Positions 20,951 through 43,630 are shown, counted from the first letter of the stretch. The stretch: 64,000 nucleotides of DNA from Coriobacteriia bacterium (GCA_030526515.1 JAUNCQ010000003.1:6541-70540); one strand, 5' to 3'. A program made the numbers and translations. The notes: a model not told the origin generated them from the sequence alone.

Positions 20951-20951
20951 A

Positions 20952-21938
20952 TTATTCACCACCCTTCTTCTTACGATTGGCAGCCATGAACGGGAGGTTC
21001 TCGAACACGGCGTCGGTCCAGCCGCGGGTGTCCGCGGGCCTGGTACCGGTCTTGGCGACCTCACCGGTCTCAAGGATGATGGTGTCCTTGGTGTCGGTGT
21101 TGTACACCAGGGTGTCGCGCTTGTAGCCTGCGGCCAGGGCGGTCATGACGCCGAAGCCAACAATGCACAGCGGGAACACAACGCCCGTGAGGGGCTTGGT
21201 GACGCCTGCCAGGGCAACAGCCGGGGAAACCTTCGGGTTCTCGACTGCGCCATGGGCAGCAGCGCCGTACTTGAGGACCTGGATGACATGCAGGCCGCCC
21301 ATCTCCTTTTCGCCATAAACCATGGCGTCAGAGTAGCCGCGGGCCTTCAGCATCTCAAGTCGCTCGTATGCCTTCTTGATCATCTCATCGCGATCGCCGA
21401 AGTCCAGAGCCTCAGGCTGGCAGGTGGAAACGCACGCGGGCTTCATGCCGTTGTGAACGCGATCCACGCAGCCGGTGCACTTCTGGATGGTGCCCACAGC
21501 GGTGCCCTCGTCGTACTGAGGAACCTCGAAGGGGCAGGCGGCGGAGCAGTACTGGCAGCCGATGCACTTGGAGTCATCGGTGGTGACCAGACCAGTCTCC
21601 GCGTCAACGAAGATGGCGCCAGCCGGGCAGATGTTGGAGCACGGTGCGTCGGTGCAGTGCTGGCAAGCACGGCGACCGAAGGCCCACTTCACGCGCTTGG
21701 TGGCCAGCTGAGCGCTGACTTCACCGGTAGTGGTGTAAGCGGGGTTCTCCATCTCGTTGTAGAGCATGATCAGACGAGTGGTGCCGTTGACATCAGGCGG
21801 ATTCTGGTGGGAACCAGACCACTTGTTGCCGTTCAGCTCCAGCGTGGACGGAAGCTCGTTCCAAACCTTGCAGGCAATCTGGCATGCATGGCAGCCAGAG
21901 CAGCGGGAGGTGTCAAACAGGAATGCCTTATCAGCCAT
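20952..21938 (-). CDS. fdnH: Formate dehydrogenase iron-sulfur subunit
   Basis: Four ferredoxin-type Cys clusters (CSGCHACQIAC, CQHCTDAPC, CIGCQYCSAAC, CTGC...) and a C-terminal TM anchor. Confidence 0.9.
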   Translation of the reverse strand: MADKAFLFDTSRCSGCHACQIACKVWNELPSTLELNGNKWSGSHQNPPDVNGTTRLIMLYNEMENPAYTTTGEVSAQLATKRVKWAFGRRACQHCTDAPCSNICPAGAIFVDAETGLVTTDDSKCIGCQYCSAACPFEVPQYDEGTAVGTIQKCTGCVDRVHNGMKPACVSTCQPEALDFGDRDEMIKKAYERLEMLKARGYSDAMVYGEKEMGGLHVIQVLKYGAAAHGAVENPKVSPAVALAGVTKPLTGVVFPLCIVGFGVMTALAAGYKRDTLVYNTDTKDTIILETGEVAKTGTRPADTRGWTDAVFENLPFMAANRKKKGGE

Positions 21939-24900: not shown

Positions 24901-25354
24901 CGACGAAGGTTGCGTCGCGCGTGTCCTTGACCTTGCGCGCGATCTCCTTGATGGCGTCCTCCCAAGAGATTTCCTCCCACTCCGTGGAGTAGGGACGACG
25001 AACCATGGGCTTGGTCCTACGATCAGGGTTCTTGATGATTTCGCGGGTCTTCGGATCCACGACGTTACGCAGCTGGAACATAGCAGCACCCTTGGGGCAC
25101 AGGCCACCCTTGTTGATGGGATGGTCCGGGTCGCCTTCCAGGTGGATCAGCTCGCCGTCGCGCACCGAGCACAGAGAACCGCAGCCACCTGCGCAATAGC
25201 AGCAGATGTTGGAGCGCTCTTCCGTGTTGACCAGCTTCCAGTCGCCAGAAACCTCGGCGGCCAGAGCCGGAGCAGCGGCAGTCATCTCAAAGGCCATGGT
25301 TGCTGCGAATGCGGCGCCAATGCCCTTGAAGAAACCTCTACGTGTTAATTCCAT
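21938..25354 (-). CDS. fdnG: Formate dehydrogenase-N-type catalytic subunit, selenocysteine-containing (UGA at 24743-24745)
   Basis: Track ORFs 24743..25399 and 21938..24694 are in the same frame and are joined by TGA in the conserved context NQARV-U-HGPTVAGL, as in E. coli FdnG. Tat signal MELTRRGFFKG. RBS GGAAAGGAGGG precedes the ATG at 25354. Confidence 0.9.
24714..24745 (-). promoter_or_regulatory. Sec UGA plus candidate SECIS of fdnG
   Basis: The mRNA reads UGACACGGCCCCACC, then GUCGCC-GGUCU-GGCGGC (24714-24730). The GGUC-containing apical loop resembles the E. coli fdhF SECIS. Confidence 0.6.
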
Positions 25355-25773: not shown

Positions 25774-26592
25774 ATGGATGCCATCAACCTTTCGGGCGAA
25801 AAGAAGCCCGACATCGACCGCCCCTACTATCGCGTGGGCGTGGGCATTGGCTCCATCACCTCCAAGGTGGCCGTGCTGGAAGGCAACAAGCTGGTGCACA
25901 AGTTCATCTTCCCCACCGGCCTAAACAGCAACGACGCCGCCAAGCGCTGCCTGGATCAGCTGGAGGCCGACGGCTACTCCCGCGACGACTGCGCCTTTGC
26001 CGCAACGGGCATCGGCCAGATGGCGGTCACCTACGCCCAGAAGAACGTGGACATTGCGGTGTGCCACGGCAAGGGCGCCCACTTCCTGTTCAGCTCCGAC
26101 GGCATTGTCATTGACATCGGCGGTCAGGAAACCCAGATCATGGAGGTCTCCAGCGGCCGCGTGGAGAAGATCGCCTCCAACGACCGTTGCTCCGCAGCTG
26201 TGGGCAAGTTCCTGGAAAGCACCGCCCTGCGCATGGGCATTTCCGTGAGCCAGCTGGAGGAGATTGCCCAGCGCGGCACCCCGGTTCCCCTTTCGTCCAT
26301 GTGCATGGTGTTCGTGGAATCCGAGCTGGCCAAGCGCATGGCCCAGGGCGCGTCCAACGAAGACCTGGCCTGGATGGCCATCGAATCCGTTGCCAACCGC
26401 GTTGCCCCGCTGATTCCGCTCCATAAGGACGAAACGTACATGCTCACCGGCGGCCAGTGCGACAATCACCTCCTCATCCAGCGCCTGAGCGAAAAGCTGG
26501 GCGTGGAGATCAAGACGTCCCCGCTGGGTCGCTATGCCGGCGTCATCGGCGCGGCCCTGAGCCTGCCCGCCAAGCGGCCCACCAGCCGCTAG
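25774..26592 (+). CDS. BcrAD/BadFG/HgdC-family ATPase (acyl-CoA dehydratase activase type)
   Basis: YRVGVGIGSITSKVAVL ... IDIGGQETQ ... NDRCSAAVGKFLE ... MCMVFVESE ... LTGGQ. The start is uncertain because the ATG at 25774 has no clear RBS. Confidence 0.7.
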   Translation: MDAINLSGEKKPDIDRPYYRVGVGIGSITSKVAVLEGNKLVHKFIFPTGLNSNDAAKRCLDQLEADGYSRDDCAFAATGIGQMAVTYAQKNVDIAVCHGKGAHFLFSSDGIVIDIGGQETQIMEVSSGRVEKIASNDRCSAAVGKFLESTALRMGISVSQLEEIAQRGTPVPLSSMCMVFVESELAKRMAQGASNEDLAWMAIESVANRVAPLIPLHKDETYMLTGGQCDNHLLIQRLSEKLGVEIKTSPLGRYAGVIGAALSLPAKRPTSR

Positions 26593-26725: not shown

Positions 26726-27802
26726 GTGGCCAAGGAAAAGGTCTATCTTTCCAAGCTCACCAGCAAGGGCGGTTGAGCCGCAAAGTGGGGTCCGGGTGAC
26801 CTCGAAAGCATATTGGAGCCGATCCTCAACGCCAACCTGGGCGTTGACGGCGCCGAAAACCTACTGCTGGGCTTCGAAACCGCAGACGACGCCGCCATCT
26901 ACAAGGTCAGTGACGACGCCGCGGCCGTGCTCACGGTGGACTTCCTGACGCCGCTGGTGGACGACCCCTACCAGTTCGGCCGCCTGGCCGCCGCCAACGC
27001 CCTGTCCGACGTGTTCGCCATGGGCGGCAGGCCCGTGTGCGCCCTGAACATCCTGGCCCTGGACTGCGCCCTGGGCACCGAGGTCGCGGCCGAGATCATG
27101 CGCGGCGGCGCCAGCGCCGTCCGTGAGGCCAACTGCTTCCTGGTGGGCGGCCACTCCGTGGACGACCCCGAGCCCAAGTACGGCCTGTGCGTGTTCGGCC
27201 TGGTGCACCCCGACCACATCATGAAGAACGGCGGCGCCCGCCCCGGCGACCTGCTGTACCTGACCAAGCGCATTGGCACGGGCTTGCTTTCGGCCGCATT
27301 CAAGATCGGCGAATGCGAGCAGGCCGACTTCGACCCCGCCATTGAAAGCATGTGCGAGCTCAACAAGGCCGGCGGCGTGGCAGCCGTGGAAGCCAGTGCC
27401 CACGCGGTCACCGACGTGACCGGCTTCGGCCTGGCGGGCCACCTCCATGAGATGCTGGAGGCCAGCGACTGCAGCGTGGAGCTGGACTGGGACCGCCTGC
27501 CCCTGTTCAACAAGGCCTGGGAGCTGTGCGAAGCCTACTGTCGCCCCAACCGCACCTTCAGCATCATGGACTTTGCCGAGCCCTTCGTAGCCCAGGGCAA
27601 CCTTGACGACGAAGAGTTCGACAACCGCATGGGCATCATCTGCGACCCCCAGACCTCCGGCGGCCTGCTGGTGGCAGTCGACCCCGCCAACGCGGCCACC
27701 TTCGAAGCCGCCTTCAAGCGAGAGTCCGGCCGCGCCCCCTGGCGCATCGGCCGCTTCGTGGACGGCCCCGACTGCACCATCCGCTTCAGCGACGCCAACT
27801 AG
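26726..27802 (+). CDS. selD: Selenide, water dikinase SelD, itself a selenoprotein (UGA at 26774-26776)
   Basis: The GTG at 26726 follows RBS AAAGAGGAG. The N-terminus VAKEKVYLSKLTSKGG-U-AAKWGPGDLE places Sec where other SelD proteins have the catalytic Cys/Sec. The track ORF starts downstream at 26813. The remainder is a typical PurM-like SelD. Confidence 0.9.
26774..26803 (+). promoter_or_regulatory. Sec UGA plus candidate SECIS of selD
   Basis: UGAGCCGCAAAGU is followed by GGGGUC-CGGGU-GACCUC (26787-26803). Confidence 0.5.
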
Positions 27803-30220: not shown

Positions 30221-30562
30221 CTACTCCGGACTGTTGCCTTTTGCGGTGGGCTTCTGGCCCTTCAGGAAACGCCAGGACCAGTGGCCGCCCTTCATGGAGC
30301 GCACGTCGGCGTAGCCCAGCTCGGTGAGCTTGTCGGCCACCACCTTGGAGGCGCCGCCGCGATAGCAGTAGACCACCATGGGCACGTGCTTGGGGAAGCG
30401 CTGCTCGTACATATCCGGGTTCGTGGCGCCGAAGGGTGCGCAGATGGCGCCCTTCAGGTGGCCCTTCACGTAGGAGCTGTTGTTGCGGATGTCGACCAGG
30501 ATGAAGTCGTCGCCGCGCAGGATCATGTCCCGCACCTCCGCCGGGGTGATTTCCACTGCCAT
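30221..30562 (-). CDS. Rhodanese-domain sulfur/selenium transferase
   Basis: FILVDIRN...GHLKGA...VVYCYRGGAS active-site loop. The ATG overlaps the fdhD stop (TAATG). RBS AAGGAAGGA. Confidence 0.8.
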   Translation of the reverse strand: MAVEITPAEVRDMILRGDDFILVDIRNNSSYVKGHLKGAICAPFGATNPDMYEQRFPKHVPMVVYCYRGGASKVVADKLTELGYADVRSMKGGHWSWRFLKGQKPTAKGNSPE

Positions 30563-31662
30563 TAGGAGTTCCTTCCTTGGGGCTTGCACAGCTGGTCGTT
30601 GAACACCTTCATGGAGTCGGGGCGGGCGCTGCAGATGAGCGTCAGACCGAACTCCTGGGCCAGCTTGATGGTCATGTTGGTGGGCACCGCCTTGCTGACC
30701 AGCACGGGGACGCGGCTGCGGATGCCCTTGAGCACCATGTCCACCGGCAGGCGGCCGCTGCTGAACACGATGGCGCTGGTCAGGTCCACGCCGTCACGCA
30801 GGGCGCAGCCGATCACCTTGTCGAAGGCGTTGTGGCGGCCAAGGTCCTCGCAGCAGTAGAGCACCTGGTCGCGAACGGCCAGGTAGCAGCTGTGGGTGCC
30901 GCTGGTCTTGCGATGCATGGGGCTGTCGGTGGCGAACTGGCGGGCCAGGCTGAAGATCCACTCCGGGTCCCAGTCCATGGGGTCCAGGGGACGCAGGGTC
31001 TGGTCGCCTTCGAAGTAGCTGTTGAACACCTGGTTGCCAGTACAGCAGGTGGGCACCGTCTTGACCATGGCGCGGGACAGGTCCGCCTCACGGTCGCGCA
31101 GGTACACGTTTGCCCGGGTGGAGTTGCCCAGCAGCTCAATGGACTCGATTTCCGCAGGACCACCGATCAGGCCTTCGGTGAACAGGCGGCCCACGATCAG
31201 GTCAAACAGGTGGTCCGGGGTGCAGACCACGCGCATGGTCAGGATCTCGTTCACGTACACGTCCAGGGTATGCTCCACCTGCACGTCTTCGTCCACGTCC
31301 TCGGCCGGGTCCTCCTGCTCCGCGTCGGAGCGGTACAGCGTGATGGGCACCGTGGTCAGGGTGTTGCCCGGGTTCGGGTCACCGGAGGTATGGAACCAGG
31401 TGCCGAAGACCTGGGCACGCTTGCCGTCCACCAGCACGTGCCAGGAGCTGCGCTGGACAATGTCAGCGTGGTCCGCCAGCACGTCCTTGGCCTGGGCGGC
31501 CGCCTCCGCGCTCATGCGCAGCGATATGCCGCAGCTTGCGGTGATTTCCTTGGGGGTGGGAATGACGAACGGCTGCAGATGGGCCAGCAGCTTCTGAGCT
31601 GCCATGGCCGCATGGGTGGAGTCGAACGCCAGTATGTGCCAGATATTTTTCATGCAGACCAT
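30562..31662 (-). CDS. fdhD: DUF3343 (Se/S-carrier-like) domain fused to formate dehydrogenase accessory sulfurtransferase FdhD
   Basis: The N-terminal ~85 aa (NIWHILAFDSTHAAMAAQKLL...PTPKEITASCGISLRM) look like DUF3343. The remainder is FdhD-like (...GRHNAFDKVIG...SSGRLPVDMVLK...). The start is 31662 or 31653. Confidence 0.75.
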   Translation of the reverse strand: MVCMKNIWHILAFDSTHAAMAAQKLLAHLQPFVIPTPKEITASCGISLRMSAEAAAQAKDVLADHADIVQRSSWHVLVDGKRAQVFGTWFHTSGDPNPGNTLTTVPITLYRSDAEQEDPAEDVDEDVQVEHTLDVYVNEILTMRVVCTPDHLFDLIVGRLFTEGLIGGPAEIESIELLGNSTRANVYLRDREADLSRAMVKTVPTCCTGNQVFNSYFEGDQTLRPLDPMDWDPEWIFSLARQFATDSPMHRKTSGTHSCYLAVRDQVLYCCEDLGRHNAFDKVIGCALRDGVDLTSAIVFSSGRLPVDMVLKGIRSRVPVLVSKAVPTNMTIKLAQEFGLTLICSARPDSMKVFNDQLCKPQGRNS

Positions 31663-31707
31663 TCTATTTCAACAGGGGACCAAAGGAAGCGCGAGCCTGG
31701 GCCAGAA

Positions 31708-31754
31708 CGTAAAACGGCCCCGACCTGCGGTGGCAGGCCAGGGCCGCGGGGCCG
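31708..31754 (-). terminator. Terminator-like hairpin after yedF
   Basis: On the minus strand, CGGCCCC...GGGGCCG (31754-31715) is followed by UUUU. Confidence 0.5.
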
Positions 31755-31767
31755 CAAGCGGCGTGAT

Positions 31768-32373
31768 TTACAGGGTGATGACCTTGGCGGACTCGTGCAT
31801 GCGCTCCAGGATGTCGTACATGTTGGAGACCTCGCCCACCTTCAGGTCGTCGGCGCACTCGTAGAAGTTCAGGCAGGTGCCGCAGACCAGGACGTCGGTG
31901 CCCTTCTCCATCATTTCCTTCACGGAGTCGATGATCTGGGCTTCGTCACCGCACAGCAGCTTGACGCCGGAGTTCATGAACAGCAGGTTCATGGGAGCGA
32001 CCTCGGCCTGGTTCAGGGTGTACAGGGCCATCTTCATGAGGTTGTAGCCCAGCTCGCCGTCGCCTTCGCCCACATGGTCCTTGCCGATGAACACGGAGTA
32101 GCCGCAGCTGCCACCGGTCACGCTGCATGCGGCAGCGGCCTTGGGAGCCTCGGCGTTGGGGTCCAGCTCGCCGCCCAGGGTGATCAGGAAGCCGCCGTCA
32201 ATGTCGGCCACCTGGAAGCCCAGGCCCTTCTTGCCGGCCAGGCGGGTGATGTTCTTAACGGCGGTTTCGTTGTCCACCTTGATGGCCACGTCGGTGTTGC
32301 CGGCGTCGATTTCCTTCTTCACCATGACCAGCGGCTGCGGGCACGGCTTGCCAAAACCATCGAGTTCTACCAT
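31768..32373 (-). CDS. yedF: Selenium metabolism protein YedF (SirA/TusA-like plus DsrE-like domains)
   Basis: MVELDGFGKPCPQPLVMVKK carries the TusA-type CPxP motif, followed by a C-terminal DsrE-like half. RBS GAAAGGA precedes the ATG at 32373. Confidence 0.8.
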   Translation of the reverse strand: MVELDGFGKPCPQPLVMVKKEIDAGNTDVAIKVDNETAVKNITRLAGKKGLGFQVADIDGGFLITLGGELDPNAEAPKAAAACSVTGGSCGYSVFIGKDHVGEGDGELGYNLMKMALYTLNQAEVAPMNLLFMNSGVKLLCGDEAQIIDSVKEMMEKGTDVLVCGTCLNFYECADDLKVGEVSNMYDILERMHESAKVITL

Positions 32374-32464
32374 TGTTGCGTCCTTTCGCTCATCGCGCAT
32401 TCGCTGCGCGCCGTTACCGTTTCTCATTCATGGGACGATATTTCCTTTCGTCCCCTATTGCTCA

Positions 32465-33607
32465 TTATGCCAGGTCAGCGGCTATGTGCTGCAGGGCAGC
32501 CACCGACTGGTCCACTTCGTCGGCGGTGTTGAACCAGCCGAAGCTGAAGCGCACCGCGCCCTGGTGCTCGGTGCCCAGCGCCTTGTGCATGAGGGGCGCG
32601 CAGTGGGCGCCGGCGCGGGTGGCAATGCCGTAGTCCATGTTCAGGACGTCGGACACCTGACCGGAGTCCACGTCCGCCAGGTTCACGGCCACGATGCCCG
32701 TGCGGCCCAGCTCGGTGCCGCCGCCCAGCACGCGCATGCCGGGGATAGCGGCAATGCCCGCCTCGAAGCGCTGGGCCAGGGCGTCCTCGTGGGCGCGGAT
32801 GACGTCCACGCCGGTGTCCAGGATGAACTGGGCTCCTGCCGCCAGGCCCGCGATGCCGTGGCCGTTGATGGTGCCGGCCTCCAGACGCTCGGGCATGAAG
32901 GCCGGGTGCTCCTCGTCATAGCTGTGGGTGCCGGAGCCGCCCACCTTCAGCGGGGCCACGTCCACGCCCTCGGCCACGATCAGGCCGCCGGTGCCCTGGG
33001 GACCGTACAGGCCCTTGTGGCCGGTGAAGCACAGCACGTCCAGCTGCTGGTCGACCGCGTGCAGCGGCACCACGCCGGCGGTCTGGGCCGCGTCCACCAC
33101 GATCAGCGCGCCGTGGGCGTGGGCCATCGCGGCCAGGCGCTCCACGTCGTACAGGTCGCCGGTCAGGTTGGAGGCATGGGTCACCGCCAGCACCCGGGTG
33201 TTGGGCTGGAACAGGGCCTCCAGCTGGTCGTAGTCCAGGGAGCCGTCGGGGCCTATGGGGCAGATGGACAGCTCCACCCCCTGCTTGCGCAGCTGGTAGA
33301 GGGGACGCAGGACGGAGTTGTGGCTGGCCGCCGTGGTGATGGCGTGGTCACCGGGCTTCAGCAGGCCGAACAGCGCCGTGTTCAGGGACTCGGTGACGTT
33401 GCAGGTGAAGCTCACGCGGGATGCGTTGGCGGCACCCAGCAGGGTGGCCAGCACGTCGCGGGCCTCGAACACGGCCATGCCCGCGGAAAGGGACGCCCCG
33501 TGCACGCCGCGGCCCACGCCGCCGAAGTGGGTCAGGGCATCCGCCACGGCCTGGGCCACCTGGGGCGGCTTGAGCATGGTGGTTGCTGCGTTGTCGAAGT
33601 AGATCAT
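32465..33607 (-). CDS. Class-V aminotransferase-fold PLP enzyme (cysteine desulfurase / selenocysteine lyase-like)
   Basis: MIYFDNAATT..., HASNLTG, FTGHKGLYGPQGTGG (PLP Lys) and the RAGAHCAP active-site Cys loop. RBS GGAAAGGGA. Confidence 0.85.
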   Translation of the reverse strand: MIYFDNAATTMLKPPQVAQAVADALTHFGGVGRGVHGASLSAGMAVFEARDVLATLLGAANASRVSFTCNVTESLNTALFGLLKPGDHAITTAASHNSVLRPLYQLRKQGVELSICPIGPDGSLDYDQLEALFQPNTRVLAVTHASNLTGDLYDVERLAAMAHAHGALIVVDAAQTAGVVPLHAVDQQLDVLCFTGHKGLYGPQGTGGLIVAEGVDVAPLKVGGSGTHSYDEEHPAFMPERLEAGTINGHGIAGLAAGAQFILDTGVDVIRAHEDALAQRFEAGIAAIPGMRVLGGGTELGRTGIVAVNLADVDSGQVSDVLNMDYGIATRAGAHCAPLMHKALGTEHQGAVRFSFGWFNTADEVDQSVAALQHIAADLA

Positions 33608-33652
33608 GGGTCCCTTTCCGTCTTATATTTCGTCCCCTTGATGCGGGGCGTG

Positions 33653-33916
33653 CTAGCAGAACACGTCCCGGCGGGGGTTGATCTGGTTTTCCAGCTCCAC
33701 CACGTCCTCGTAGGGCGGCATACCCGGCTGGTCCAGGGCCGCCCGCACGTCGTCGATGTGCTCGGGCTTGACCAGCAGCGAAACGCCGCAGCAGGCCTGC
33801 AGGCCCCGGGGCACCGGGGAGATGCGGGCCACGCAGCCCGCTGCCCGCAGCGCCTGGTACAGGGCCATGCCCGTGGTGGAGCTTTCCACCAGAATGTAAT
33901 ACGCCTTTTCCGCCAT
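33653..33916 (-). CDS. Stand-alone DUF3343 (putative Se/S carrier) protein
   Basis: MAEKAYYILVESSTTGMALYQALRAAGCVARISPVPRGLQACCGVSLLV. The start lies 6 nt after the upstream stop. The track ORF is over-extended. Confidence 0.7.
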   Translation of the reverse strand: MAEKAYYILVESSTTGMALYQALRAAGCVARISPVPRGLQACCGVSLLVKPEHIDDVRAALDQPGMPPYEDVVELENQINPRRDVFC

Positions 33917-33921
33917 AGACC

Positions 33922-35070
33922 TTACAGCATCTCGATGAACGCCGCTATGCGGGTGTCGATCTGACCCTGGTCGTTGGGGGCGTAGTCGGTTTCGATCTTC
34001 AGGTACGGGATGCCGGCGTCCTCCATGCGCTGGCGCATGAGCTCGGACTCCACGTTGAAGGTGTGGCAGGCCATGAGGACGATGTCGATGACGCCGTCCA
34101 CCTGGTACTTGCGGCACATGTCCGCGGTGTTGTCCAGGCGGCCGCCGTTGGGGGTCATGACCGAGCAGTTGATGCCCAGGTAGCGGTCGGCCAGCTCCTG
34201 CATGATGTCCTCCGCCTCCGGGTCCACCATGGCGAACTGGGTGCGGGGGCCGCCGCAGTCGTCGAAGCAGACGATGACGCCGCCGTTCTTTTCAATGGAG
34301 GCGCCCACCTTGTTCATGACGCCAGAGGAGGGGCAGCCGGTGATCAGGATGCGCTTGGCGTCGTCCGCGACACGGCGCTCGCCGGCCTCATAGGCGGCCT
34401 TGGCCTCCGCCACCTTCTTGTTCACGGCGGCGGTGTAGTCCGTCAGGCTGAAGTTGAAGCCGGCGGCGGCCACAGTTGCCATGATGTCGGTGCCCTTCAT
34501 GATGGGCGGGGTGGCCAGCTGGCACTCGTACAGGTCCAGGATGGCGCGGCGGAAGGCGTTGCGGTTGCGGGCGGCCTGGCGCAGGTCCTCGTCGGTGATG
34601 GTCACGTCGTAGGTCTGCTCCAGCTTTTCCTTGAGGAGCTCCAGCTCCTGGCGCCAGCCTGCGCGGCCCCAGGGACGGTCCTGGTTCTGGGGCAGCTGCA
34701 TGACGTAGGTTTCCTTCAGGTCGTTGAGCAGCTCGTACATCTTCTTCTTGCCGTCGCAGGTGGTTTCGCCCACGATGAAGTCAGCGTAGTACGTGAAGGG
34801 GCACTTTTCCGTGTAGGCAAAGCCGTAGGTGCCCTTGATCAGCGGGCACAGGTTCTTGGGCAGGACCTCTTCGGCGTCGGCCACGGTTTCGTTGCTGGTG
34901 CCGCACAGGGCGACCGCGGAGGCGCCGGCGGCTTCGATGATCTCCAGCGGGGTGTAGCTGCACAGGTAGCCGATGAGCTTGCCGCCGTTTTCCTTGAAGT
35001 CCTTGACCTTCATGAAGGCGCCCTTGCGGGCGTCGGCGAACTCTTCGTAGTTAGTGGGCAGATCTGCCAT
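33922..35070 (-). CDS. 2-hydroxyacyl-CoA dehydratase D-component / double-cubane-cluster reductase family protein (short form)
   Basis: [12 protein letters not shown]..., [24 protein letters not shown]..., CHTFNVE. RBS GAAAGAAGGA. Confidence 0.75.
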
Positions 35071-35099
35071 GTTCGTTCCTTCTTTCTTTTGCGGCTGGG

Positions 35100-36173
35100 C
35101 TACAGGGCCAGCTCATGGAGGGATTCGTAGGTGCAGCCGGCGGCTTCAGCGGCTGCCAGCACCGCGACGCGGTCGGCCAGCGGGGCCTGCCAGGCATAGC
35201 CGCAGCCGGCGCTGACCTGGGCCGGGATGGGGCTCAGGCGGCCGGGGGCCTTTGCCAGGCGGCACGCGCGCTCGAAGGCCAGGGCCTGGGACGTGGTGTC
35301 GAAGGTGACCACCAGGGTGGCGGGCTCGGCGTCCGTCGGCGCCGGGGCTGCCGGGGAGGGGGCGGGGTCGGCGGGGCTTTCGTCCTGCTGATCCTGGTCT
35401 TCCCACTGGCAGGGCTCCACGTCCTCCGGCAGGCACAGGGCCGCGCCGATCGCGCCGGCGAAGCGGGCCAGGGCGCTGGTCTCCACCGTGCCCTGGAGCT
35501 GGTTGGCCAGGCGCTCGACCACGTAGTCGTTCTCGCACAGGCCGCCGGTGAGGATGTAGACGTCGTTGGCGGACTTGGGGACCAGCGGCTTGACCTTGGC
35601 CACCACCGATTCGATGATGCCCCAGCAGATGTTTTCCCGCGGGGTGCCGGAGCCGATCAGGCTGATGACCTCCGATTCCGCGAACACCGTGCACATGCTG
35701 CTGATGGTGGTGGGCTGGCCCTGGCGGGCCAGGTCGGACAGCTCGGTCTGGGACAGGCCCAGGCGGTTGGCCATGACCTCGATGAACTTGCCGGTGCCTG
35801 CGGAGCACTTGTCGTTCATGTTGAACTTGATGACCTTGCCGTTCTTCAGCACGATGGCCTTGGTGTCCTGGCCGCCGATGTCCACGACCGTGCAGTCGCC
35901 GCCGAACAGCAGCGCCGCGCCCTTGCCGTGGCAGGTGATCTCGGTCACCGTCTTAGTGGCGAAGGGGACGGCCACGCGGCCGTAGCCGGTGGCGCCGAAT
36001 GCGCACTCGGTGCGGGGGTAGCCGTGGGCCTCCAGGTTCGCCACCACCTGCGCCGCCGCCTCCACGGAGCTGTAGCCCGTGGGGATGACCAGCGTGTAGG
36101 CGATCTTGTCTCCGTCGAGCACGGCCGCCTTGGTTGCGGTCGAGCCAATGTCTATGCCAACGCGATACGTCAT
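35100..36173 (-). CDS. HgdC-type activase ATPase fused to a C-terminal DUF3343 domain
   Basis: [19 protein letters not shown] ... DIGGQDTK ... [13 protein letters not shown] ... LTGG, then a Pro/Asp-rich linker, then [19 protein letters not shown]...[25 protein letters not shown]. Confidence 0.8.
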
Positions 36174-36230
36174 GATCTTCCTTCTAGTTCAACCGGTCCA
36201 CTCATACTAGCAGTCGAAACGTCAGCGAGC

Positions 36231-36328
36231 GGCGCCGTGGCGGGATGCAGGGCCCCGAGCGACCGACCGAGCGTGCTTCGCACGTGAGGAAGAGGGTCGC
36301 GCAGGGGCCCTGGGCCCACCACGGCGCC
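36231..36328. repeat. Long imperfect inverted repeat in the 204-nt gap between the reductase and activase genes
   Basis: The arms GGCGCCGTGGCGGGATGCAGGGCCCC (36231-36256) and GGGGCCCTGGGCCCACCACGGCGCC (36304-36328) enclose nested hairpins (GCGACC...GGTCGC and CGTGC-TTC-GCACG). Confidence 0.75.
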
Positions 36329-36377
36329 GCGCAGCGTCGAGCAGTTGCGCGGTTCCGTCAGGACCGCGCAGCGGGTT

Positions 36378-37658
36378 TTAGCCAAGCATCTCGATGAATG
36401 CCTCGATGCGGGTGCGCAGCTGACCTGCGTCTGCATCGTCGTAGTCAGTCTCCAGACCCAGGTACGGGATGCCGGCCTCTTCGCACGCAGCGGCGATGCC
36501 GCGCTTTTCGGTGTTGTACAGGTTGCAGAACTTCAGGTTCACGTCGATGACGCCGTCGACGTTGTACTCCTTGGCCAGGCGCAGCACGTCGTCGACGCGG
36601 CCCTGGTTCGGGGTGAAGCAAGCGCAGTTGATGCCCATGTAGCGCTTGGCCAGGTTCATGTACATGTCCTCGAGGGTTTCGGCGCTTTCGTCCACCTGGT
36701 TCTCAAAGTAGCGGGTGCCGGTGCAGGCTTCCTCGACGACCACGGCGCCGCCGCAGGTCTCGACCAGGTGATGCATCTTCCAGTTGGGGATGGCCATGGG
36801 GGTGCCGGCGATCATGATGCGCTTGGTGCCGGCCGGGAACACGCTCACGCCGTCAGCGTTGCGCTGCTCCAGCTCGTCGGCCAGCTTGTTGCACATGGTG
36901 GCGCAGCGAGCAGGGTCGTCGAAGAAGGCGATCTGCATCATGAGCAGGGCGTCCTTGCCGGAGATGGGGATGTTGTTGGCGTTCTTGCGAGCGTCGTAGA
37001 CGCGGGCCAGGGCGGCGCGCTTTTCGTTGATCAGCTTGATGGCGGCGGCCAGGTTCTCAGCCGTGACCTTCTTGCCGGTGAGCTCCTCCATGCGGTCAGC
37101 GAACAGGGCGATCTCGTTGGCCCACTTCTCGATGTCCTGGGGGCGCTTCATCTGGGGCATGTCCATGACGTAGACGGGGGCGTCGTCGGCCAGGATCTCG
37201 TATGCCTTCTTCTTGGCGTCGCAGGTGGTTTCGCCCACGAACAGGTCGGCGATGCGGAAGAACGGGCAGGTCTTGCCGAAGCGGGCGCCGATGGATGCCT
37301 TGACCAGCGGGCAGGTGTCCTTGGGCAGGTACTTTTCTCCGTCGGGGACCCAGAACTGGGAGCCGCCGCACAGGCCGGTCACGATGCCGTCAGCGGCGAT
37401 CACGACCTCGTCGGGAACGTACACGCAGAACGTGCCGACGACCTTCTTGCCCTCTTCCTTCTGGGCCTTGATCAGCTCTTCGGGGCGGATGCCGTGGACG
37501 TCAGCCACGACCATGTCCCAGAAGGCCATGCCCTCGGGGCGGTTTTCCTGGCTCAGGTAGGTGTCGCCGAAAGCGGTCGGCAGAACGGAGCACAGGACGT
37601 CGTGGTTTTCCAGGTCCATGCCCAGCTCTTCCCACATGGGGTGACGGTCAACTGCCAT
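36378..37658 (-). CDS. Double-cubane-cluster-type anaerobic reductase (DCCP/YjiM-like, HgdB superfamily)
   Basis: GTFCVYVPDEVV..., CPLVKAS, LFVGETTCDAKKK, IAGTPM..., ACTGTRYF, CACFTPN, KFCNLYN. RBS AAGGGAGA precedes the ATG at 37658. Confidence 0.8.
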   Translation of the reverse strand: MAVDRHPMWEELGMDLENHDVLCSVLPTAFGDTYLSQENRPEGMAFWDMVVADVHGIRPEELIKAQKEEGKKVVGTFCVYVPDEVVIAADGIVTGLCGGSQFWVPDGEKYLPKDTCPLVKASIGARFGKTCPFFRIADLFVGETTCDAKKKAYEILADDAPVYVMDMPQMKRPQDIEKWANEIALFADRMEELTGKKVTAENLAAAIKLINEKRAALARVYDARKNANNIPISGKDALLMMQIAFFDDPARCATMCNKLADELEQRNADGVSVFPAGTKRIMIAGTPMAIPNWKMHHLVETCGGAVVVEEACTGTRYFENQVDESAETLEDMYMNLAKRYMGINCACFTPNQGRVDDVLRLAKEYNVDGVIDVNLKFCNLYNTEKRGIAAACEEAGIPYLGLETDYDDADAGQLRTRIEAFIEMLG

Positions 37659-40031: not shown

Positions 40032-41504
40032 ATGGCCACCACCGAGCAGCAAAGCCTTCTGCGCAGCCTTCCCCAGGTCGAGGAGCTGTTGCACCACGCG
40101 CACGTCACCCCGCTGGAGAAGGACCTGCCGCGGGTGAGCATCGTGGAGACCGTGCGCGCCGTCATCAACGACGCGCGCCAGGGCATCCTGGCCGGCGCCG
40201 TGACCTGCGTGGACGCTGACGCCCTGGCCGCCCAGGTTCACCTGCGGGGCCTGGCGCTGCGCCGCGCGTCCCTGCGCCGGGTGGTGAACGCGTCCGGCGT
40301 GATCATCCACACCAACCTGGGCCGCAGCGTGCTGGCCAAGCCCGCGGTGGACGCCGTCAACGACGTGGCCCGCGGCTACTCCACCCTTGAGTACAGCACC
40401 GACGCCATGGCCCGCGGCAGCCGCCACGACCACTGCGAGCAGCTCATCTGCACCCTGACCGGCGCGGAAGCCGCCATTGCCGTGAACAACAACGCCGCCG
40501 CCGTCATGATGGTGCTGGCCGAGTTCGCCCAGGGCCACGAAGCCGTGGTCAGCCGCGGCGAGCAGGTGGAGATCGGCGGCTCCTTCCGCATCCCGGACAT
40601 CATGGCCCAGTCCCACGCCACCATGGTGGAGGTGGGCGCCACCAACAAGACCCACCCCATTGACTACGAGCGCGCGCTTTCGCCCGCCACATCCATGTTG
40701 CTGAAGGTCCACACCTCCAACTACCGCATGATCGGCTTCACGGAAAGCGTCAGCATCAAGGAGCTGCGCCACATTGCCGACGCGGAAAACGCCCGTCGCG
40801 ACGCAGCCGCACAGGCAGCCGGCCGCCCCGGCAGCGCGGACCGCGTGATGGTGTACGAAGACCAGGGCTCCGGCGCGTTCATCCGCCTGGACTGCTTCGG
40901 CGAGTACGCGGAGCCCACCGTGGCCGAATCCGTGAAGCAGGGCGTTGACCTGGTCAGCTTCAGCGGCGACAAGCTGCTCGGCGGACCCCAGGCCGGCATC
41001 GTGGTGGGCCGCAAGGAGTTCATCGACCGCCTGAAGAAGAACCCGCTGGCCCGCGCCATGCGCCTGGACAAGATGACCCTGGCCGCCCTGGAGGCCACCC
41101 TGCGCCTGTACCTGGACCCGGAGCGCGCGCTGCGGGAGATCCCGACCCTGGCCATGCTGTCCACCCCGGCCGACCAGATCCGCCCCCGGGCCGAAGCACT
41201 GGCCGCCGCCATCCAGGCCACGCTGCCCCAGGGCTGCGCCGAGGTCACCGTGGTGCCGGAGATCAGCCGCGCCGGCGGCGGCGCCCTGCCCATGTGCGAC
41301 ATCCCCACCTTCGTGGCCCGCGTCCGCTTCCTGCAGGGCACGGCGCTGGACTGCAACCGCCACCTGATCAGCGAGCGCGACCTGCCGGTCATCGGCCGCC
41401 TGAGCCACGACACGCTCCTGTTCGACGCCCGCACCCTGCTGAACACCGACGAGTACAAGGAAGTTGCCCTGGCCCTGGCCGAGTACTTCAGCACCCTGAT
41501 CTAG
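40032..41504 (+). CDS. selA: L-seryl-tRNA(Sec) selenium transferase
   Basis: LRSLPQVEELL..., VINASGVIIHTNLGRS, and FSGDKLLGGPQAG (PLP Lys). RBS AAGGAGA. Confidence 0.9.
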   Translation: MATTEQQSLLRSLPQVEELLHHAHVTPLEKDLPRVSIVETVRAVINDARQGILAGAVTCVDADALAAQVHLRGLALRRASLRRVVNASGVIIHTNLGRSVLAKPAVDAVNDVARGYSTLEYSTDAMARGSRHDHCEQLICTLTGAEAAIAVNNNAAAVMMVLAEFAQGHEAVVSRGEQVEIGGSFRIPDIMAQSHATMVEVGATNKTHPIDYERALSPATSMLLKVHTSNYRMIGFTESVSIKELRHIADAENARRDAAAQAAGRPGSADRVMVYEDQGSGAFIRLDCFGEYAEPTVAESVKQGVDLVSFSGDKLLGGPQAGIVVGRKEFIDRLKKNPLARAMRLDKMTLAALEATLRLYLDPERALREIPTLAMLSTPADQIRPRAEALAAAIQATLPQGCAEVTVVPEISRAGGGALPMCDIPTFVARVRFLQGTALDCNRHLISERDLPVIGRLSHDTLLFDARTLLNTDEYKEVALALAEYFSTLI

Positions 41505-41593
41505 CTTTTTCGGACGAAAGCGCCGCTACGCCGCCGGCCCCCGCGGGGAGCTGGAAGGCGAGCGGGGATTTCGTCCTGATGTAAGGAGGAACC

Positions 41594-43522
41594 ATGAGCA
41601 CCACCGGCACGGGAAGCCTGATCCTGGGCACCGCTGGGCACATCGACCACGGCAAGTCGTCCCTGATCATGGCGCTGACCGGCACCGACCCGGACCGCCT
41701 GAAGGAGGAAAAGAAGCGCGGCATCACCATTGAGCTGGGCTTTGCGCAGCTGCTGCTGCCCAGCGGCCGCCACATGGGCGTGGTGGACGTGCCCGGCCAC
41801 GAGCGGTTCGTGCGCCAGATGGTGCAGGGCGCCACCGGCGTTGACGTGGCGCTGCTGGTCATTGCCGCGGACGACGGCGTCATGCCCCAGACCATCGAGC
41901 ACATGGCCGTGCTGGAACTGCTGGGCGTGCGCACTGCCGTGGTGGCGCTGACCAAGATCGACCTGATGGACGAGGAGTGGGTCGAGTTCATGGCGGACGA
42001 AGTGGCGGAGAAGCTGTCGGGGACCTGCTTTGCGGATGCGCCGGTGGTGCCGGTATCGTCCCGCACGGGAGCCGGCCTGGACGATCTGCGGGCCGCCCTG
42101 GACGCCGCGGCCGATGCCGCCGAGCGCACCAAGCCCGAAGGATCCATGCGCCTGCCGGTGGACCGCGTGTTCACCGTCAAGGGGTTCGGCACCGTCATCA
42201 CCGGCACCCTGTGGAGCGGCACCGTTGCCGTGGGCGACGAGCTGGAGGTTCTGCCCTCCGGCCTGCGGACCCGCGTGCGCTCCATCCAGGAGCACGGCGT
42301 TGACCAGGACGTGGCCTACGCCGGCAACCGCGTGGCCCTGAGCCTGAACGGCCTGACCACCGACGACGTGCGACCCGGCGACTTCCTGGCCGCGCCGGAG
42401 ACCATGGTGGCCTCCGACCGGTTCGACGCCAACCTGACCTACCAAGATCCGTTCCACAGCGGCAAGCCCTTCAAGACCGGCAGCCGCGTGCACGTGGCCC
42501 ACGGCACCCGCGAGGTCACCGGCCGCGTGCTGCTCATGAACGGGCGGGAGACCCTGGAGCCCGGCGCCACCGACCTGGTGCAGATCCGTCTGGACGAGCC
42601 TCTGGCCCTGAGCTATCAGGACCGGTTCATCCTGCGATCCTATTCGCCCGTGCGCGTCATTGCCGGCGGCAGCGTGGTCATGGCGCATCCGCGCAGGCGA
42701 ACGAACCTTTCGCCCGAAGAAGAGGCATTGCTGGCAGCCCTGAGGGACGGCCGGGTGCAGGAGGCGGTGGATGCCCACGTGGCGCTCATGGAGCTGCCCG
42801 AGCTTCCCGCCCAGGTGGCGGAGGCCGTGGGCTTGGACGCCGCGCTGGTGGAGCCGTGCCTGCAGGAGGCCATTGCCGGCAAGCGGCTGGCCTGGCTGGG
42901 ATCGGCCGGACGCTACCTGGTGCGGCCGGCGCTGGTGCAGAAGACGCTTTCCGCCATCGAGCGGGCGCTCATGGACTTCCATAGCAAGAATCCCGAGGCC
43001 ACGGGCATTGCCAAGGAGGCGCTGCGCCAGCGGGTGAACGACAAGCTGCCCAAGGACTGCTTCGACGCGCTGCTGGAGGAAGCCGCCGCCCGCGAGCAGG
43101 TGGTCCAGAACGGCGGCGAGGTCAGCCACCCCAAAGCCGGTGCCGGCGCCCGCGCCCTGGAGCAGAAGACGGCCCAGACCCTTGCGGCGCTGCTGGCCGA
43201 TGCCGCCGGTGCTCCCCCGCTGTTCGGCGAGCTGGCCGCCCAGGCAGGAGCCAGCCCCGACGTGGCCCGCAAGGCGCTGGCATCGCTGGTGGCCGACGGC
43301 CGCGTGGTCCGCGTGGAGCAGGAGCGCTACTACGACGCCGCCGTGATCGAACGGTACCGGAAGCTGATCCGCGGGCACCTGCGAGAGCACGGCAGCGCCA
43401 CCGCCGCGACCCTTAAGGATGTTTTGGGCACCACTCGCAAGTTCGCCATGCCGCTGCTGGAATATTTTGACGAGGAAGGCCTGACGCGACGCGACGGGGA
43501 CGAGCGATTGCTGGTAGAATAG
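41594..43522 (+). CDS. selB: Selenocysteine-specific translation elongation factor
   Basis: GTAGHIDHGKSSL, DVPGHERF and TKID G-motifs, EF-Tu-like domains II/III, and C-terminal winged-helix repeats. RBS AAGGAGGA. Confidence 0.9.
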   Translation: MSTTGTGSLILGTAGHIDHGKSSLIMALTGTDPDRLKEEKKRGITIELGFAQLLLPSGRHMGVVDVPGHERFVRQMVQGATGVDVALLVIAADDGVMPQTIEHMAVLELLGVRTAVVALTKIDLMDEEWVEFMADEVAEKLSGTCFADAPVVPVSSRTGAGLDDLRAALDAAADAAERTKPEGSMRLPVDRVFTVKGFGTVITGTLWSGTVAVGDELEVLPSGLRTRVRSIQEHGVDQDVAYAGNRVALSLNGLTTDDVRPGDFLAAPETMVASDRFDANLTYQDPFHSGKPFKTGSRVHVAHGTREVTGRVLLMNGRETLEPGATDLVQIRLDEPLALSYQDRFILRSYSPVRVIAGGSVVMAHPRRRTNLSPEEEALLAALRDGRVQEAVDAHVALMELPELPAQVAEAVGLDAALVEPCLQEAIAGKRLAWLGSAGRYLVRPALVQKTLSAIERALMDFHSKNPEATGIAKEALRQRVNDKLPKDCFDALLEEAAAREQVVQNGGEVSHPKAGAGARALEQKTAQTLAALLADAAGAPPLFGELAAQAGASPDVARKALASLVADGRVVRVEQERYYDAAVIERYRKLIRGHLREHGSATAATLKDVLGTTRKFAMPLLEYFDEEGLTRRDGDERLLVE

Positions 43523-43533
43523 CGTCCGCTCAT

Positions 43534-43630
43534 GGAGATGGATGGGCCCTGGTGGGTCCCGCGGCCTTCAAAGCCGTTGTGGGGCGCGCAGAACGTCTCG
43601 GATGTGTTCGATTCGCATGCATCTCCGCCA
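43534..43630 (+). tRNA. selC: tRNA-Sec (anticodon UCA)
   Basis: GGAGATG...CATCTCC-G-CCA acceptor stem. 6-bp D stem GGGCCC/GGGTCC with the 4-nt loop TGGT. Anticodon loop CTTCAAA. Long variable arm. T arm ATGTG-TTCGATT-CGCAT. CCA is encoded. The gene starts 11 nt after selB. Confidence 0.9.

Follow-up and report, generated by a model that had tools for sequence, protein, structure and literature searches.

Within a 64,000-nt stretch of Coriobacteriia DNA (hereafter the window), we identified eight consecutive minus-strand genes (30221-37658) that combine double-cubane cluster proteins (DCCPs), an ATP-hydrolysing activase and DUF3343 cysteine-carrier domains. We read the region as a conserved Se/S-handling island of three-component double-cubane modules in which a carrier-bound chalcogen would be reduced and selenide passed to SelD, and we assign this reading a probability of about 0.4. 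The gene associations beneath it are observed directly: DCCP1-type genes almost always have a subfamily-A DUF3343 gene just downstream, subfamily-B DUF3343 is part of the activase here and its neighbour elsewhere, and a TIGR01977 PLP lyase, YedF, a LysR regulator and selD are repeated members of such clusters. This pairing of reductase and carrier gives a testable lead to the natural role of double-cubane reductases.

A double-cubane gene cluster within a selenium island

Pfam and NCBIfam profile searches confirmed every domain assignment that a first-pass annotation had proposed for this gene cluster, including DUF3343 domains at the activase C terminus, in a free-standing gene and at the FdhD N terminus (PF11823, 60.7, 55.8 and 48.3 bits, respectively); we counted eight genes rather than the nine it gave. 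DCCP1 (36378..37658, minus strand) is a class-I (long, 426 aa) DCCP scoring 491.9 bits against NF040772 (cut-off 350), and DCCP2 (33922..35070, minus) is a class-II (short, 382 aa, YjiM-like) member at 476.5 bits. The two share 39% identity, and DCCP2 is without the N-terminal extension. Both have the predicted GETTCD(A/G)KKK motif (GETTCDAKKK and a second ten-residue form) and keep the Cys ligand pattern. DCCP1 is homologous across the entire protein to the crystallised C. hydrogenoformans DCCP (6ENO/7YYL; E 3e-138), and its Cys 78, 97, 116, 131, 146, 312, 345 and 378 are invariant.

The activase gene (35100..36173, minus; TIGR00241, 226 bits) encodes a DCCP reductase of the 'archerase' type, in which a Pro/Ala/Asp-rich linker connects the BcrAD_BadFG domain (residues 5-246) with a DUF3343 domain at the C terminus (residues 287-354; approximately 35112-35315). 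The free-standing DUF3343 gene (33653..33916, minus; 87 aa) is real, with its start now set at 33916, 5 nt past the DCCP2 stop. A class-V PLP cysteine desulfurase or selenocysteine-lyase-like enzyme (32465..33607, minus) belongs to the EF2568/SclA-related family TIGR01977 (409 bits, cut-off 377); it fails as SclA itself (336 against a cut-off of 525). YedF (31768..32373, minus; TIGR03527, 172.9 bits, cut-off 110) has TusA-like and DsrE-like domains, with a CPxP motif in its translation. The last two genes encode a DUF3343 domain (residues 9-65) fused to an FdhD-NarQ domain (residues 129-356; 30562..31653, minus; PF02634, 196.5 bits; TIGR00129, 142.3, barely above its cut-off of 140.9) and a single-domain rhodanese (30221..30562, minus; PF00581, 54.7 bits). 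The rhodanese start and the fdhD stop share 1 nt, and two related loci (L006 and L009) have the same gene arrangement.

The cluster is set among genes for selenoprotein synthesis. On one side lies an FDH-N type operon (19074..25354, minus), assigned from translations and from Pfam Molybdopterin, Fer4_11, Ni_hydr_CYTB and FdhE as fdnG followed by fdnH, fdnI and fdhE; the fdnG translation has a Tat signal and a Sec codon (TGA at 24743-24745). selD (26726..27802, plus; TIGR00476, 332 bits) itself encodes a selenoprotein, with in-frame read-through of a TGA at 26774-26776 (context GG-U-AAK). It was correctly placed close to the cluster, at a measured distance of 2.4 kb rather than 3 kb. Verified selenoprotein genes in the window number two, selD and fdnG, and not the three or more put forward earlier. 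Between fdnG and selD sits a second, divergent activase paralog (25774..26592, plus; TIGR00241, 176 bits), 47% identical to the first, kept in L006 and L009 and with no DCCP adjoining it. selA, selB and tRNA-Sec follow at 40032..43626 (plus), called as ORFs with homology to SelA/SelB of relatives and, for the tRNA (43534-43626), by Rfam (RF01852, 66.6 bits) and ARAGORN. No YedE gene was found beside the cluster within the window. The genome comes from a gut Coriobacteriia.

DUF3343 genes are conserved neighbours of DCCP genes

We surveyed 80 species-level loci carrying a DCCP1 ortholog. The gene directly downstream of DCCP1 encodes DUF3343 in 73 of them (median gap 16 nt), and 77 have such a gene within the locus; each of the 107 candidate DUF3343 ORFs was confirmed as PF11823. 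The proposal that DUF3343 ties the redox genes to the carrier genes holds beyond the window, and the neighbourhood check found the reductase-carrier pairing in E. coli as well. An activase lies within 3 kb of DCCP1 in 58 of the 80 loci, and all 58 are orthologous to the fused activase of the window. TIGR01977 desulfurases occur nearby in 38 loci (5/5 sampled were confirmed as TIGR01977), YedF in 18, SelD in 12 and SelA/B in 7. For the 39 DCCP1 loci with full flanks, 11 (about a quarter) have a selenium marker within 10 kb, against a rough chance estimate below ~5%. The extended set selD-lysR-activase-yedF-desulfurase-DUF3343-DCCP-DUF3343 was found again in a Bacillota MAG, and YedF also adjoins DCCP1 in Coriobacteriia and Synergistota clusters.

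On clustering, DUF3343 fell into three subfamilies, each specific to a gene context, and all three are represented once in the window: the free gene belongs to subfamily A, the type found 3' of DCCP1 in other species; the activase domain to subfamily B; and the FdhD-fused domain to subfamily C, the type that comes after YedF. A P-x-P…C-G loop is invariant across all three. The free protein has the invariant loop cysteine (CCG) and a C-terminal cysteine (…VFC), the latter present in 52 of 73 members downstream of DCCP1. Its AF2 model (pLDDT 84.6) is a beta-alpha-beta-loop-beta-alpha-beta fold with a disordered tail, generic ferredoxin-like and resembling PII and ACT regulatory proteins at TM <= ~0.5. 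The fusions with the activase and with FdhD, a known sulfur-relay protein, arose independently. At least 23 protein clusters (60-85% identity) have the activase fusion, and its conserved partner in loci L001-L008 is DCCP2; in L001-L005 this pair stands far from any selenium gene. Fusion to FdhD occurs only in close relatives (L006, L007, L009 and L095). FdhD and rhodanese, which the first-pass annotation had included in the system, are lineage-specific additions outside the conserved core, and the adjacent FDH-N(Sec)/fdhE operon explains both.

DCCP1 has a clade-specific cysteine, Cys23, in its N-terminal extension, and its presence correlates perfectly with DUF3343 linkage: all 82 members of the clade linked to DUF3343 have it, against 0/118 in the Carboxydothermus clade, which has Leu at this position and Phe at the window clade's Ala125. 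DUF3343 was absent from 4/4 Carboxydothermus-type DCCP loci, with no desulfurase nearby either.

Relation to known systems

The Carboxydothermus hydrogenoformans DCCP/DCCP-R system (6ENO, 7YYL; Jeoung and Dobbek) shares with DCCP1 the Cys ligand pattern and N-terminal extension, and likewise has an archerase-type activase adjacent. Its clade has two components without DUF3343, whereas the window clade has DUF3343, and the window adds a short DCCP and an activase-fused carrier domain. E. coli yjiM-yjiL-ytiA is the same triad of class-II DCCP, activase and DUF3343 protein, and is core in that species (5374/5426 genomes). YjiM clusters with DCCP2 at a looser threshold only. The ytiA start overlaps the yjiL stop, and this gene order is the domain order of the window's fused activase. 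YtiA (PF11823, 48.9 bits) is divergent, fitting neither subfamily A nor B, and our literature search found no paper on it. Unlike the window, the E. coli triad has no desulfurase, YedF or sel genes adjacent.

An earlier statement that reductases and carriers had never been linked proved too strong: the association is given in a STRING table of Lin et al. 2015 (PMC5322559), and Haft and Gwadz 2022 (bioRxiv 10.1101/2022.07.06.499078) reported that 955/970 strong DCCPs (98%), of the same NF040772 family as the window's, are in SelD-positive genomes. The YedE/YedF-DUF3343-Sec-lyase module of Lin et al. resembles the present cluster in having YedF followed by DUF3343, a NifS-like lyase and selD/selA/selB close by. 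Slackia, the organism they used as a reference, is a relative whose cluster is almost the same. They also described a LysR subfamily related to selenium, for which STRING ranks a DCCP-type gene as the top partner. Their activase and 'HgdB-like' genes appear in the STRING table only, undiscussed, and DUF3343 subfamilies and DCCP pairing are unaddressed there. Haft and Gwadz offered two hypotheses, a selenium substrate or selenium in the cofactor, with no mention of YedF, YedE, FdhD, selenocysteine lyase or PF11823. We found no paper giving DUF3343 as a DCCP partner.

A candidate mechanism and its alternatives

Reduction of carrier-bound selenium for SelD is a plausible candidate mechanism. The PLP lyase, acting on selenocysteine or cysteine, would bind the Se (or S) that it removes as a perselenide or persulfide; the DUF3343 carriers, through their invariant loop cysteine, and YedF would then receive this atom. 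A loaded DUF3343 carrier would then dock on the DCCP, where the extra Cys23 is predicted to lie in helices capping the substrate channel. At the double cubane, electrons boosted through ATP hydrolysis by the activase would reduce the Se(0)-level atom, setting selenide free for SelD. In this lineage, the FdhD-fused subfamily C carrier and the rhodanese may together supply the neighbouring Sec formate dehydrogenase with sulfur for its Mo/W-bisPGD cofactor.

In the IscS-TusA and IscS-FdhD relays, persulfide moves from a PLP desulfurase through a small cysteine carrier to an acceptor enzyme. The proposed scheme has the same desulfurase-carrier-acceptor order, and FdhD itself is in the cluster; the carrier fold here is DUF3343 rather than TusA, though YedF has a TusA-like domain. 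We know of no precedent among such relays for an ATP-driven reductase as acceptor. Ordinary thiols or thioredoxin reduce perselenides and persulfides, so the need for such a reductase is not obvious. DCCPs do reach potentials out of range for dithionite or Ti(III) citrate (PMC9351452). The mechanism is further weakened because activase-DUF3343 and DCCP2 pairs occur away from selenium genes, and because natural deletion haplotypes lose DCCPs yet keep the selenium genes. Many contigs from a Slackia-like gut population (97% identity) contain only a decayed DCCP1 or have lost DCCP1-activase-DCCP2; these contigs retain the desulfurase, both DUF3343 genes, YedF and selBAD, so that in this population the selenium pathway can dispense with the DCCPs.

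Such retention of supply genes is expected if they also serve Sec synthesis while the DCCPs are consumers of the chalcogen, an alternative that we consider unlikely overall but the strongest of those weighed. Here the desulfurase, DUF3343, YedF and possibly SelD would provide a sulfur or selenium atom for assembly or repair of the double cubane, for example at its bridging mu2 position, perhaps yielding a selenium-bridged analog of the [8Fe-9S] cluster, and DUF3343 would be a maturation factor comparable to the FdhD-fused carrier. That fusion indicates that DUF3343 can feed a cofactor-maturation protein, and a desulfurase beside a complex Fe-S enzyme fits a familiar pattern, that of nif systems with their dedicated NifS-like desulfurase. 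The distribution is also asymmetric, DCCPs being nearly confined to SelD-positive genomes, most of which are without DCCPs, and the idea was raised as a formal possibility (Haft and Gwadz 2022). Against it, Carboxydothermus-type DCCPs manage without DUF3343 or a desulfurase nearby (4/4 loci), and a DUF3343 gene wedged between DCCP and reductase in 73/80 species resembles a stoichiometric partner more than an assembly factor. To our knowledge, no DCCP structure has been reported with selenium. The crystallised [8Fe-9S] DCCP was reportedly a recombinant product from E. coli; as an argument against chalcogen supply to the cluster this is not decisive, because E. coli itself encodes YtiA.

Slightly less likely again is that the DCCP substrate is a different refractory small molecule, or an organic or organometallic compound, with DUF3343 as a regulatory, gating or redox partner and selenium genes nearby through shared regulation (LysR_Se, strict anaerobiosis) or a selenium-dependent step elsewhere in the pathway. 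Acetylene, azide and hydrazine are all reduced by DCCPs in vitro, no selenium marker lies within 10 kb in about 70% of DCCP1 loci, and the DUF3343 model is only generic ferredoxin-like, with its PII/ACT resemblance; Haft and Gwadz 2022 linked DCCPs to the SAO organometallic system and preferred 'pathways with obligatory selenium-dependent steps'. The invariant cysteine, the FdhD fusion and the presence of an adjacent TIGR01977 desulfurase at roughly half the loci nevertheless point to chalcogen chemistry, and YedF, SelD and LysR are drawn into an operon-like cluster in Bacillota, with YedF adjoining DCCP1 in Coriobacteriia and Synergistota too. If the chemistry involved sulfur alone, the system would be an ATP-driven persulfide/polysulfide reductase, or a sulfur relay for Fe-S or Mo-cofactor biogenesis, adjoined by selenium genes since Se and S chemistry share carriers. 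The sulfurtransferases FdhD and rhodanese and a lyase above the generic TIGR01977 cut-off but below that for SclA are consistent with this, and DUF3343 is present in SelD-lacking organisms and has no selenium-specific subfamily (Lin et al. 2015). We regard it as improbable given the 98% of strong DCCPs in SelD-positive genomes and the recurrence of YedF (TIGR03527), selD and the LysR regulator in clusters; an ATP-consuming route would also be hard to justify with sulfide abundant in these anaerobes.

Intergenic hairpins

Both hairpins noted in the first-pass annotation exist. A long imperfect hairpin of ~100 nt (36231..36328, minus) occupies the DCCP1-activase intergenic region (36174-36377), whose MFE of -109.6 kcal/mol corresponds to z = -5.1 against 200 shuffles; it matched no Rfam family and is possibly an attenuator, terminator or RNA-stability element. 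The gap between yedF and DUF3343-fdhD contains a terminator-like GC-rich hairpin (31714..31747, minus); its stem has 15 pairs, including 11 G-C, and a weak T tail comes after it.

Gene content of the reductase–DUF3343 cluster

Pfam and NCBIfam profile searches upheld every domain assignment that the first-pass annotation had made by reading the sequence; the nine genes it listed come to eight by our count, all on the minus strand at 30221-37658, and both hairpins it described are found in the cluster. Two double-cubane cluster proteins, DCCP1 (36378-37658; 491.9 bits) and DCCP2 (33922-35070; 476.5 bits), exceed the curated equivalog cut-off of 350 bits for NF040772, 'double-cubane-cluster-containing anaerobic reductase'. 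The activase gene (35100-36173; TIGR00241, 226.4 bits versus 125.4) is located between them, that is, as an adjacent BcrAD_BadFG archerase, and a Pro/Ala/Asp-rich linker joins its product to a C-terminal DUF3343 domain (Se_S_carrier, PF11823; 60.7 bits). Two further DUF3343 domains, one free-standing (33653-33916; 87 aa, 55.8 bits) and one fused to an FdhD-like domain (30562-31653; 48.3 bits), likewise score above the PF11823 gathering threshold of 25 bits. YedF (31768-32373; TIGR03527, 172.9 bits, cut-off 110) shows TusA and DsrE domains in Pfam, and a rhodanese is encoded at 30221-30562. The class-V PLP enzyme (32465-33607) should be called SclA-related rather than SclA, because it missed the SclA cut-off (NF040779; 336.3 versus 525 bits) while passing the broader TIGR01977 'cysteine desulfurase family' (409 versus 377). 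An Rfam scan of the hairpin between DCCP1 and the activase matched no known RNA family.

The translated activase contains the motifs NDKC(123)SAGTG and SSMC(161)TVFAE, whose Cys123 and Cys161 we take, from what is known of the family, to be cluster ligands. The FdhD-like domain passes TIGR00129 narrowly (142.3 versus 140.9 bits) and falls below NF001943 (147.5 versus 269); its loop reads TCCTG, with adjacent cysteines, at a position where E. coli FdhD presumably has a CxxC pair. A public annotation (P0125, NCBI source) reduces the activase ORF to its C-terminal 106 residues (35100-35420, minus strand), given as a separate 'DUF3343 domain-containing protein'; in the window the activase-DUF3343 ORF is continuous, at 357 aa. 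In the protein collection searched, the full fused protein had no match at ≥90% identity. We considered whether the fusion is an assembly artefact and rejected this, as independent assemblies show it in 23 or more clusters.

Both DCCPs carry GETTCD(A/G)KKK and the cysteine ligand pattern. Cysteines 78, 97, 116, 146, 312, 345 and 378 of DCCP1, together with Cys131, are invariant in both DCCP types, and the counted DCCP1 spacings (18/18/29/165/32/32; DCCP2 equivalent) are within one residue of the published seven-cysteine motif, CX19CX18-19CX29CX166-170CX32-34CX32C (PMC7317905). DCCP1 can be aligned over its whole length with the crystallised DCCP of Carboxydothermus (E 3e-138) and is accordingly a class I protein with an N-terminal extension. 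DCCP2 has no such extension, like E. coli YjiM, whose type of short DCCP is termed 'class II' (PMC7317905).

A DUF3343 gene accompanies DCCP1 orthologs

A DCCP alignment was used to search a single genome from each species, which gave 80 loci with DCCP1 orthologs (54-75% identity; Lachnospiraceae, other Clostridia, Peptococcaceae, Syntrophomonadaceae, Peptoniphilaceae, Synergistota and Coriobacteriia); their annotation relied on six-frame phmmer and hmmsearch. A DUF3343 ORF lies on the same strand within 600 bp downstream of DCCP1 in 73 of the 80 loci, where its start follows the DCCP1 stop at a median distance of 16 nt, and anywhere in the locus in 77, the contigs of the remaining 3 being too short. 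All 107 candidate DUF3343 ORFs from these loci are PF11823 by Pfam. An activase occurs within 3 kb of DCCP1 at 58/80 loci and a desulfurase at 38/80 (TIGR01977 in five of five sampled), with YedF at 18, SelD at 12 and SelA/B at 7 of the 80. Where full flanks were available (n = 39), the counts were 38 for DUF3343, 35 for activase, 20 for desulfurase, 10 for YedF, 6 for SelD and 4 for SelA/B. The cluster exemplifies an arrangement that is both conserved and widespread, in which DCCP, activase and DUF3343 are tightly coupled genetically, the TIGR01977 lyase is frequent, and YedF, SelD and a LysR regulator appear repeatedly; the physical tie between redox and carrier genes through DUF3343, as proposed from the sequence, is real and general.

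The entire arrangement is retained in close relatives at 84% identity, and another relative, with an activase of 60% identity, encodes activase-DUF3343, DCCP2, desulfurase, YedF, DUF3343, SelD, FdhD, SelA and SelB. One Bacillota MAG has the compact order selD-lysR-activase-yedF-desulfurase-DUF3343-DCCP1-DUF3343. The pair of fused activase and DCCP2 also occurs on its own, near ribosomal-protein or glycyl-radical genes. DCCP clusters 70-72% identical to that of the window were found on contigs binned as Methanocorpusculum, Alloprevotella, Melainabacteria and Bacteroidaceae (L025, L028, L029 and L042); gene order is Coriobacteriia-like in L028, L029 and L042 and follows a Clostridia-like pattern in L025. 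These observations suggest mis-binning or recent transfer.

DUF3343 is not a universal partner of class I DCCPs, a possibility that we rejected because Carboxydothermus-clade loci consist of DCCP and activase only. A carrier HMM found no DUF3343 within 6 kb at the Carboxydothermus islandicus, Thermincola potens and Desulfosporosinus youngiae loci, and precomputed Pfam annotation shows none at a Paradesulfitobacterium DCCP locus (L094). These DUF3343-free loci include one encoding a protein 96% identical to the crystallised DCCP. The contrast between this clade and the DUF3343-linked one may explain why the model enzyme has yielded no substrate clue. At the Paradesulfitobacterium locus, the gene immediately after the DCCP-activase pair is ferredoxin:thioredoxin-reductase-like (FeThRed_B; L094:8022-8654), and an HdrA-like gene lies farther along.

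DUF3343 subfamilies and a clade-specific DCCP cysteine

By genomic context, the DUF3343 domains group into three subfamilies, in all of which a P-x-P…C-G loop is invariant (107 sequences). Subfamily A, of about 87 aa, lies downstream of DCCP1, and 52 of its 73 members there have cysteine as the C-terminal residue; the free DUF3343 of the window belongs here, relocated behind DCCP2. Subfamily B (…SAGCGxAW) adjoins activase, desulfurase or YedF in Clostridia; in a clade of Coriobacteriia it forms a fusion with the activase. Subfamily C (FDSTHAAM…ITASCG) is encoded behind YedF, which in a metagenome scan was upstream at almost all loci that extended far enough to include that gene; most of these loci are near selA, selB or selD, and roughly half of the contigs carry DCCPs. 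Its fusion to FdhD is confined to close relatives of the window; the FdhD part of the proposed system is local. DUF3343 has been fused independently to an electron-donating ATPase, the activase, and to a sulfur-relay protein, FdhD.

The AlphaFold (AF2) model of the window's subfamily-A domain (pLDDT 84.6) has a beta-alpha-beta-loop-beta-alpha-beta fold, with the invariant cysteine in the long beta2-beta3 loop and a disordered tail bearing the terminal cysteine. A sequence search against the PDB returned nothing significant, and the fold offers no functional clue, because Foldseek matched this model only to generic ferredoxin-like proteins (PII, ACT; TM ≤~0.5, E ≥5e-3). When the three DUF3343 domains were used as queries, a word-indexed homolog search gave only 33 hits and is unfit as a census of the family. 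The name Se_S_carrier for PF11823 is a prediction going back to Lin et al. 2015 (PMC5322559).

DUF3343-linked and Carboxydothermus DCCP clades separate cleanly by sequence. In an alignment of 82 and 118 sequences, respectively, Cys23 of the N-terminal extension (window 37590-37592) is present in all 82 DUF3343-linked DCCPs, whereas about 98% of the 118 proteins of the Carboxydothermus type have Leu at position 23; at position 125 the former clade has Ala and the latter Phe. Because only two clades are compared, the correlation of Cys23 with DUF3343 could derive from one ancestral change; fixation of Cys or Leu on either side suggests constraint.

E. coli encodes the same three components

In E. 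coli K-12, yjiM (DCCP) is followed by yjiL (activase) and then by ytiA, which overlaps the yjiL stop. YtiA (L093:8669-8926 at the K-12 locus; NC_000913.3 4563668-4563925) is an 85-aa 'uncharacterized protein' that scores 48.9 bits against PF11823. With this DUF3343 gene beside yjiM and yjiL, E. coli has a DCCP-activase-DUF3343 triad, matching the three components in the window, and 5374 of the 5426 complete E. coli genomes (99%) carry all three genes. Placement of YtiA in a subfamily failed (21.9 versus 21.3 bits), and a search of the accessible literature found no paper on YtiA or on the function of YjiM. The triad gives immediate genetic tractability.

Candidate routes of chalcogen transfer

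The first-pass annotation proposed that the reductases act on carrier-bound selenium or sulfur destined for SelD and/or FdhD. In our version of that model, the lyase would load the DUF3343 carriers, whose invariant cysteine would hold the chalcogen atom; a DCCP energised by the activase would reduce this atom from the Se(0) level, releasing selenide to SelD; and the DUF3343-FdhD fusion and rhodanese would serve maturation of the neighbouring formate dehydrogenase. We hold this unproven route tentatively, at a probability of roughly 0.4. A literature search for a citable Se(0)/HSe- potential gave nothing usable, and the thermodynamic argument from 'very low potential' is for that reason left out of the evidence.

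Its main rival runs in the reverse direction, with the carriers supplying sulfur or selenium to the DCCP's own cluster, and natural variation bears on both. Within a single Slackia-like species of the gut (97% identity), DCCP1 is decayed on some contigs and DCCP1-activase-DCCP2 is missing from many; the haplotypes among the human-gut metagenome contigs L156, L142 and L143 are the full block, a DCCP1 remnant or deletion of the whole block, and desulfurase, two DUF3343 genes, YedF and selBAD are intact in every one. Loss of the DCCP block argues against an essential supplier role. It fits either an accessory, source-specific role for the reductases or supply to the DCCP itself. We consider this reverse route rather doubtful. 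That the DCCPs act on an unrelated substrate is unlikely, and a function confined to sulfur is more improbable still.

A broader reading, which we consider unlikely, is that DCCP, activase and DUF3343 form an unrecognised, widespread three-component machine and a further SelD-linked selenium trait. Such a machine could be an ATP-driven selenium reductase that opens otherwise inaccessible Se(0)-level selenium, or an enzyme with a DUF3343-delivered selenium atom in its double cubane; it would have been kept from YjiM-YjiL-YtiA of E. coli to gut Coriobacteriia and Clostridia, and the carrier's loop or C-terminal cysteine would form with Cys23 of DCCP1 a relay into the cluster.

Relation to earlier work

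The assertion that redox and carrier genes had not been linked before was overstated. The STRING table of Lin et al. 2015 (PMC5322559) lists 'CoA-substrate-specific enzyme activase' and '2-hydroxyglutaryl-CoA dehydratase subunit' as partners, undiscussed in the text, and Haft and Gwadz 2022 (bioRxiv 10.1101/2022.07.06.499078), who built NF040772, counted 955 of 970 strong DCCPs in genomes that are SelD-positive. They proposed that selenium compounds are processed by DCCPs, or that DCCPs belong to pathways in which an earlier or later step depends obligatorily on selenium, and raised a selenium-bridged DCCP cofactor as a formal possibility; YedF, DUF3343 and FdhD go unmentioned. The selenium link of DCCPs thus has precedent. 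Structural papers on DCCPs (PMC7317905, PMC9351452) call the physiological function unknown and mention neither selenium nor DUF3343. DUF3343 as a conserved third component, its subfamilies and fusions, Cys23 and the E. coli triad appear undescribed in the searchable literature.

We file the system as a three-component version of the DCCP/activase reductase tied to selenium/sulfur carriers. DCCPs were described as a nitrogenase-like ATP-driven reductase family. In a large clade of them the DCCP gene comes with that of a dedicated cysteine carrier, in very many cases with an SclA-type lyase gene, and time and again with genes for YedF, SelD and a LysR regulator; what DCCPs do physiologically and what YedF and DUF3343 do in selenium metabolism thereby merge into one question. 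The candidate route from lyase through carrier and DCCP to SelD has defined components and mutable residues, namely the loop cysteine, the C-terminal cysteine and Cys23.

The surrounding selenium island

An FDH-N type operon (19074-25354, minus strand) comprises fdnG, then fdnH, fdnI and fdhE. FdnG, the FDH-N alpha subunit (21938-25354, minus strand), has a Tat signal (periplasmic) and selenocysteine at an in-frame TGA (24743-24745); gene callers break it up, into fragments of 203 and 918 aa. selD (26726-27802, plus strand) itself encodes a selenoprotein (GG-U-AAK, TGA 26774-26776), and its start in the mechanical ORF list, 26813, is too late. selA, selB and tRNA-Sec lie on the opposite flank of the cluster from selD. 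Between fdnG and selD is a second, divergent activase gene (25774-26592, plus strand), a paralog whose product is 47% identical to the first; it has no DCCP alongside and is kept in close relatives. As a partner for DCCP1 it was rejected, since 58 of 58 DCCP1-linked activases from other loci are closer to the first activase.

No SAO genes (MerB-like SaoL, the ABC transporter SaoABP or other Sao) are among the genes annotated at 17.5-48 kb. A gene for a BspA-type LRR/fibronectin-III surface protein (28540-30216, minus strand) separates the rhodanese from the selD-side membrane protein; L006 and L007, relatives at 84% identity, lack it at the equivalent position. That membrane protein (27811-28467, plus strand), a 218-aa multi-pass protein adjoining selD and giving no Pfam match, might qualify as a candidate transporter within the island; close relatives likewise have a membrane protein without a Pfam match at the equivalent selD-side position.
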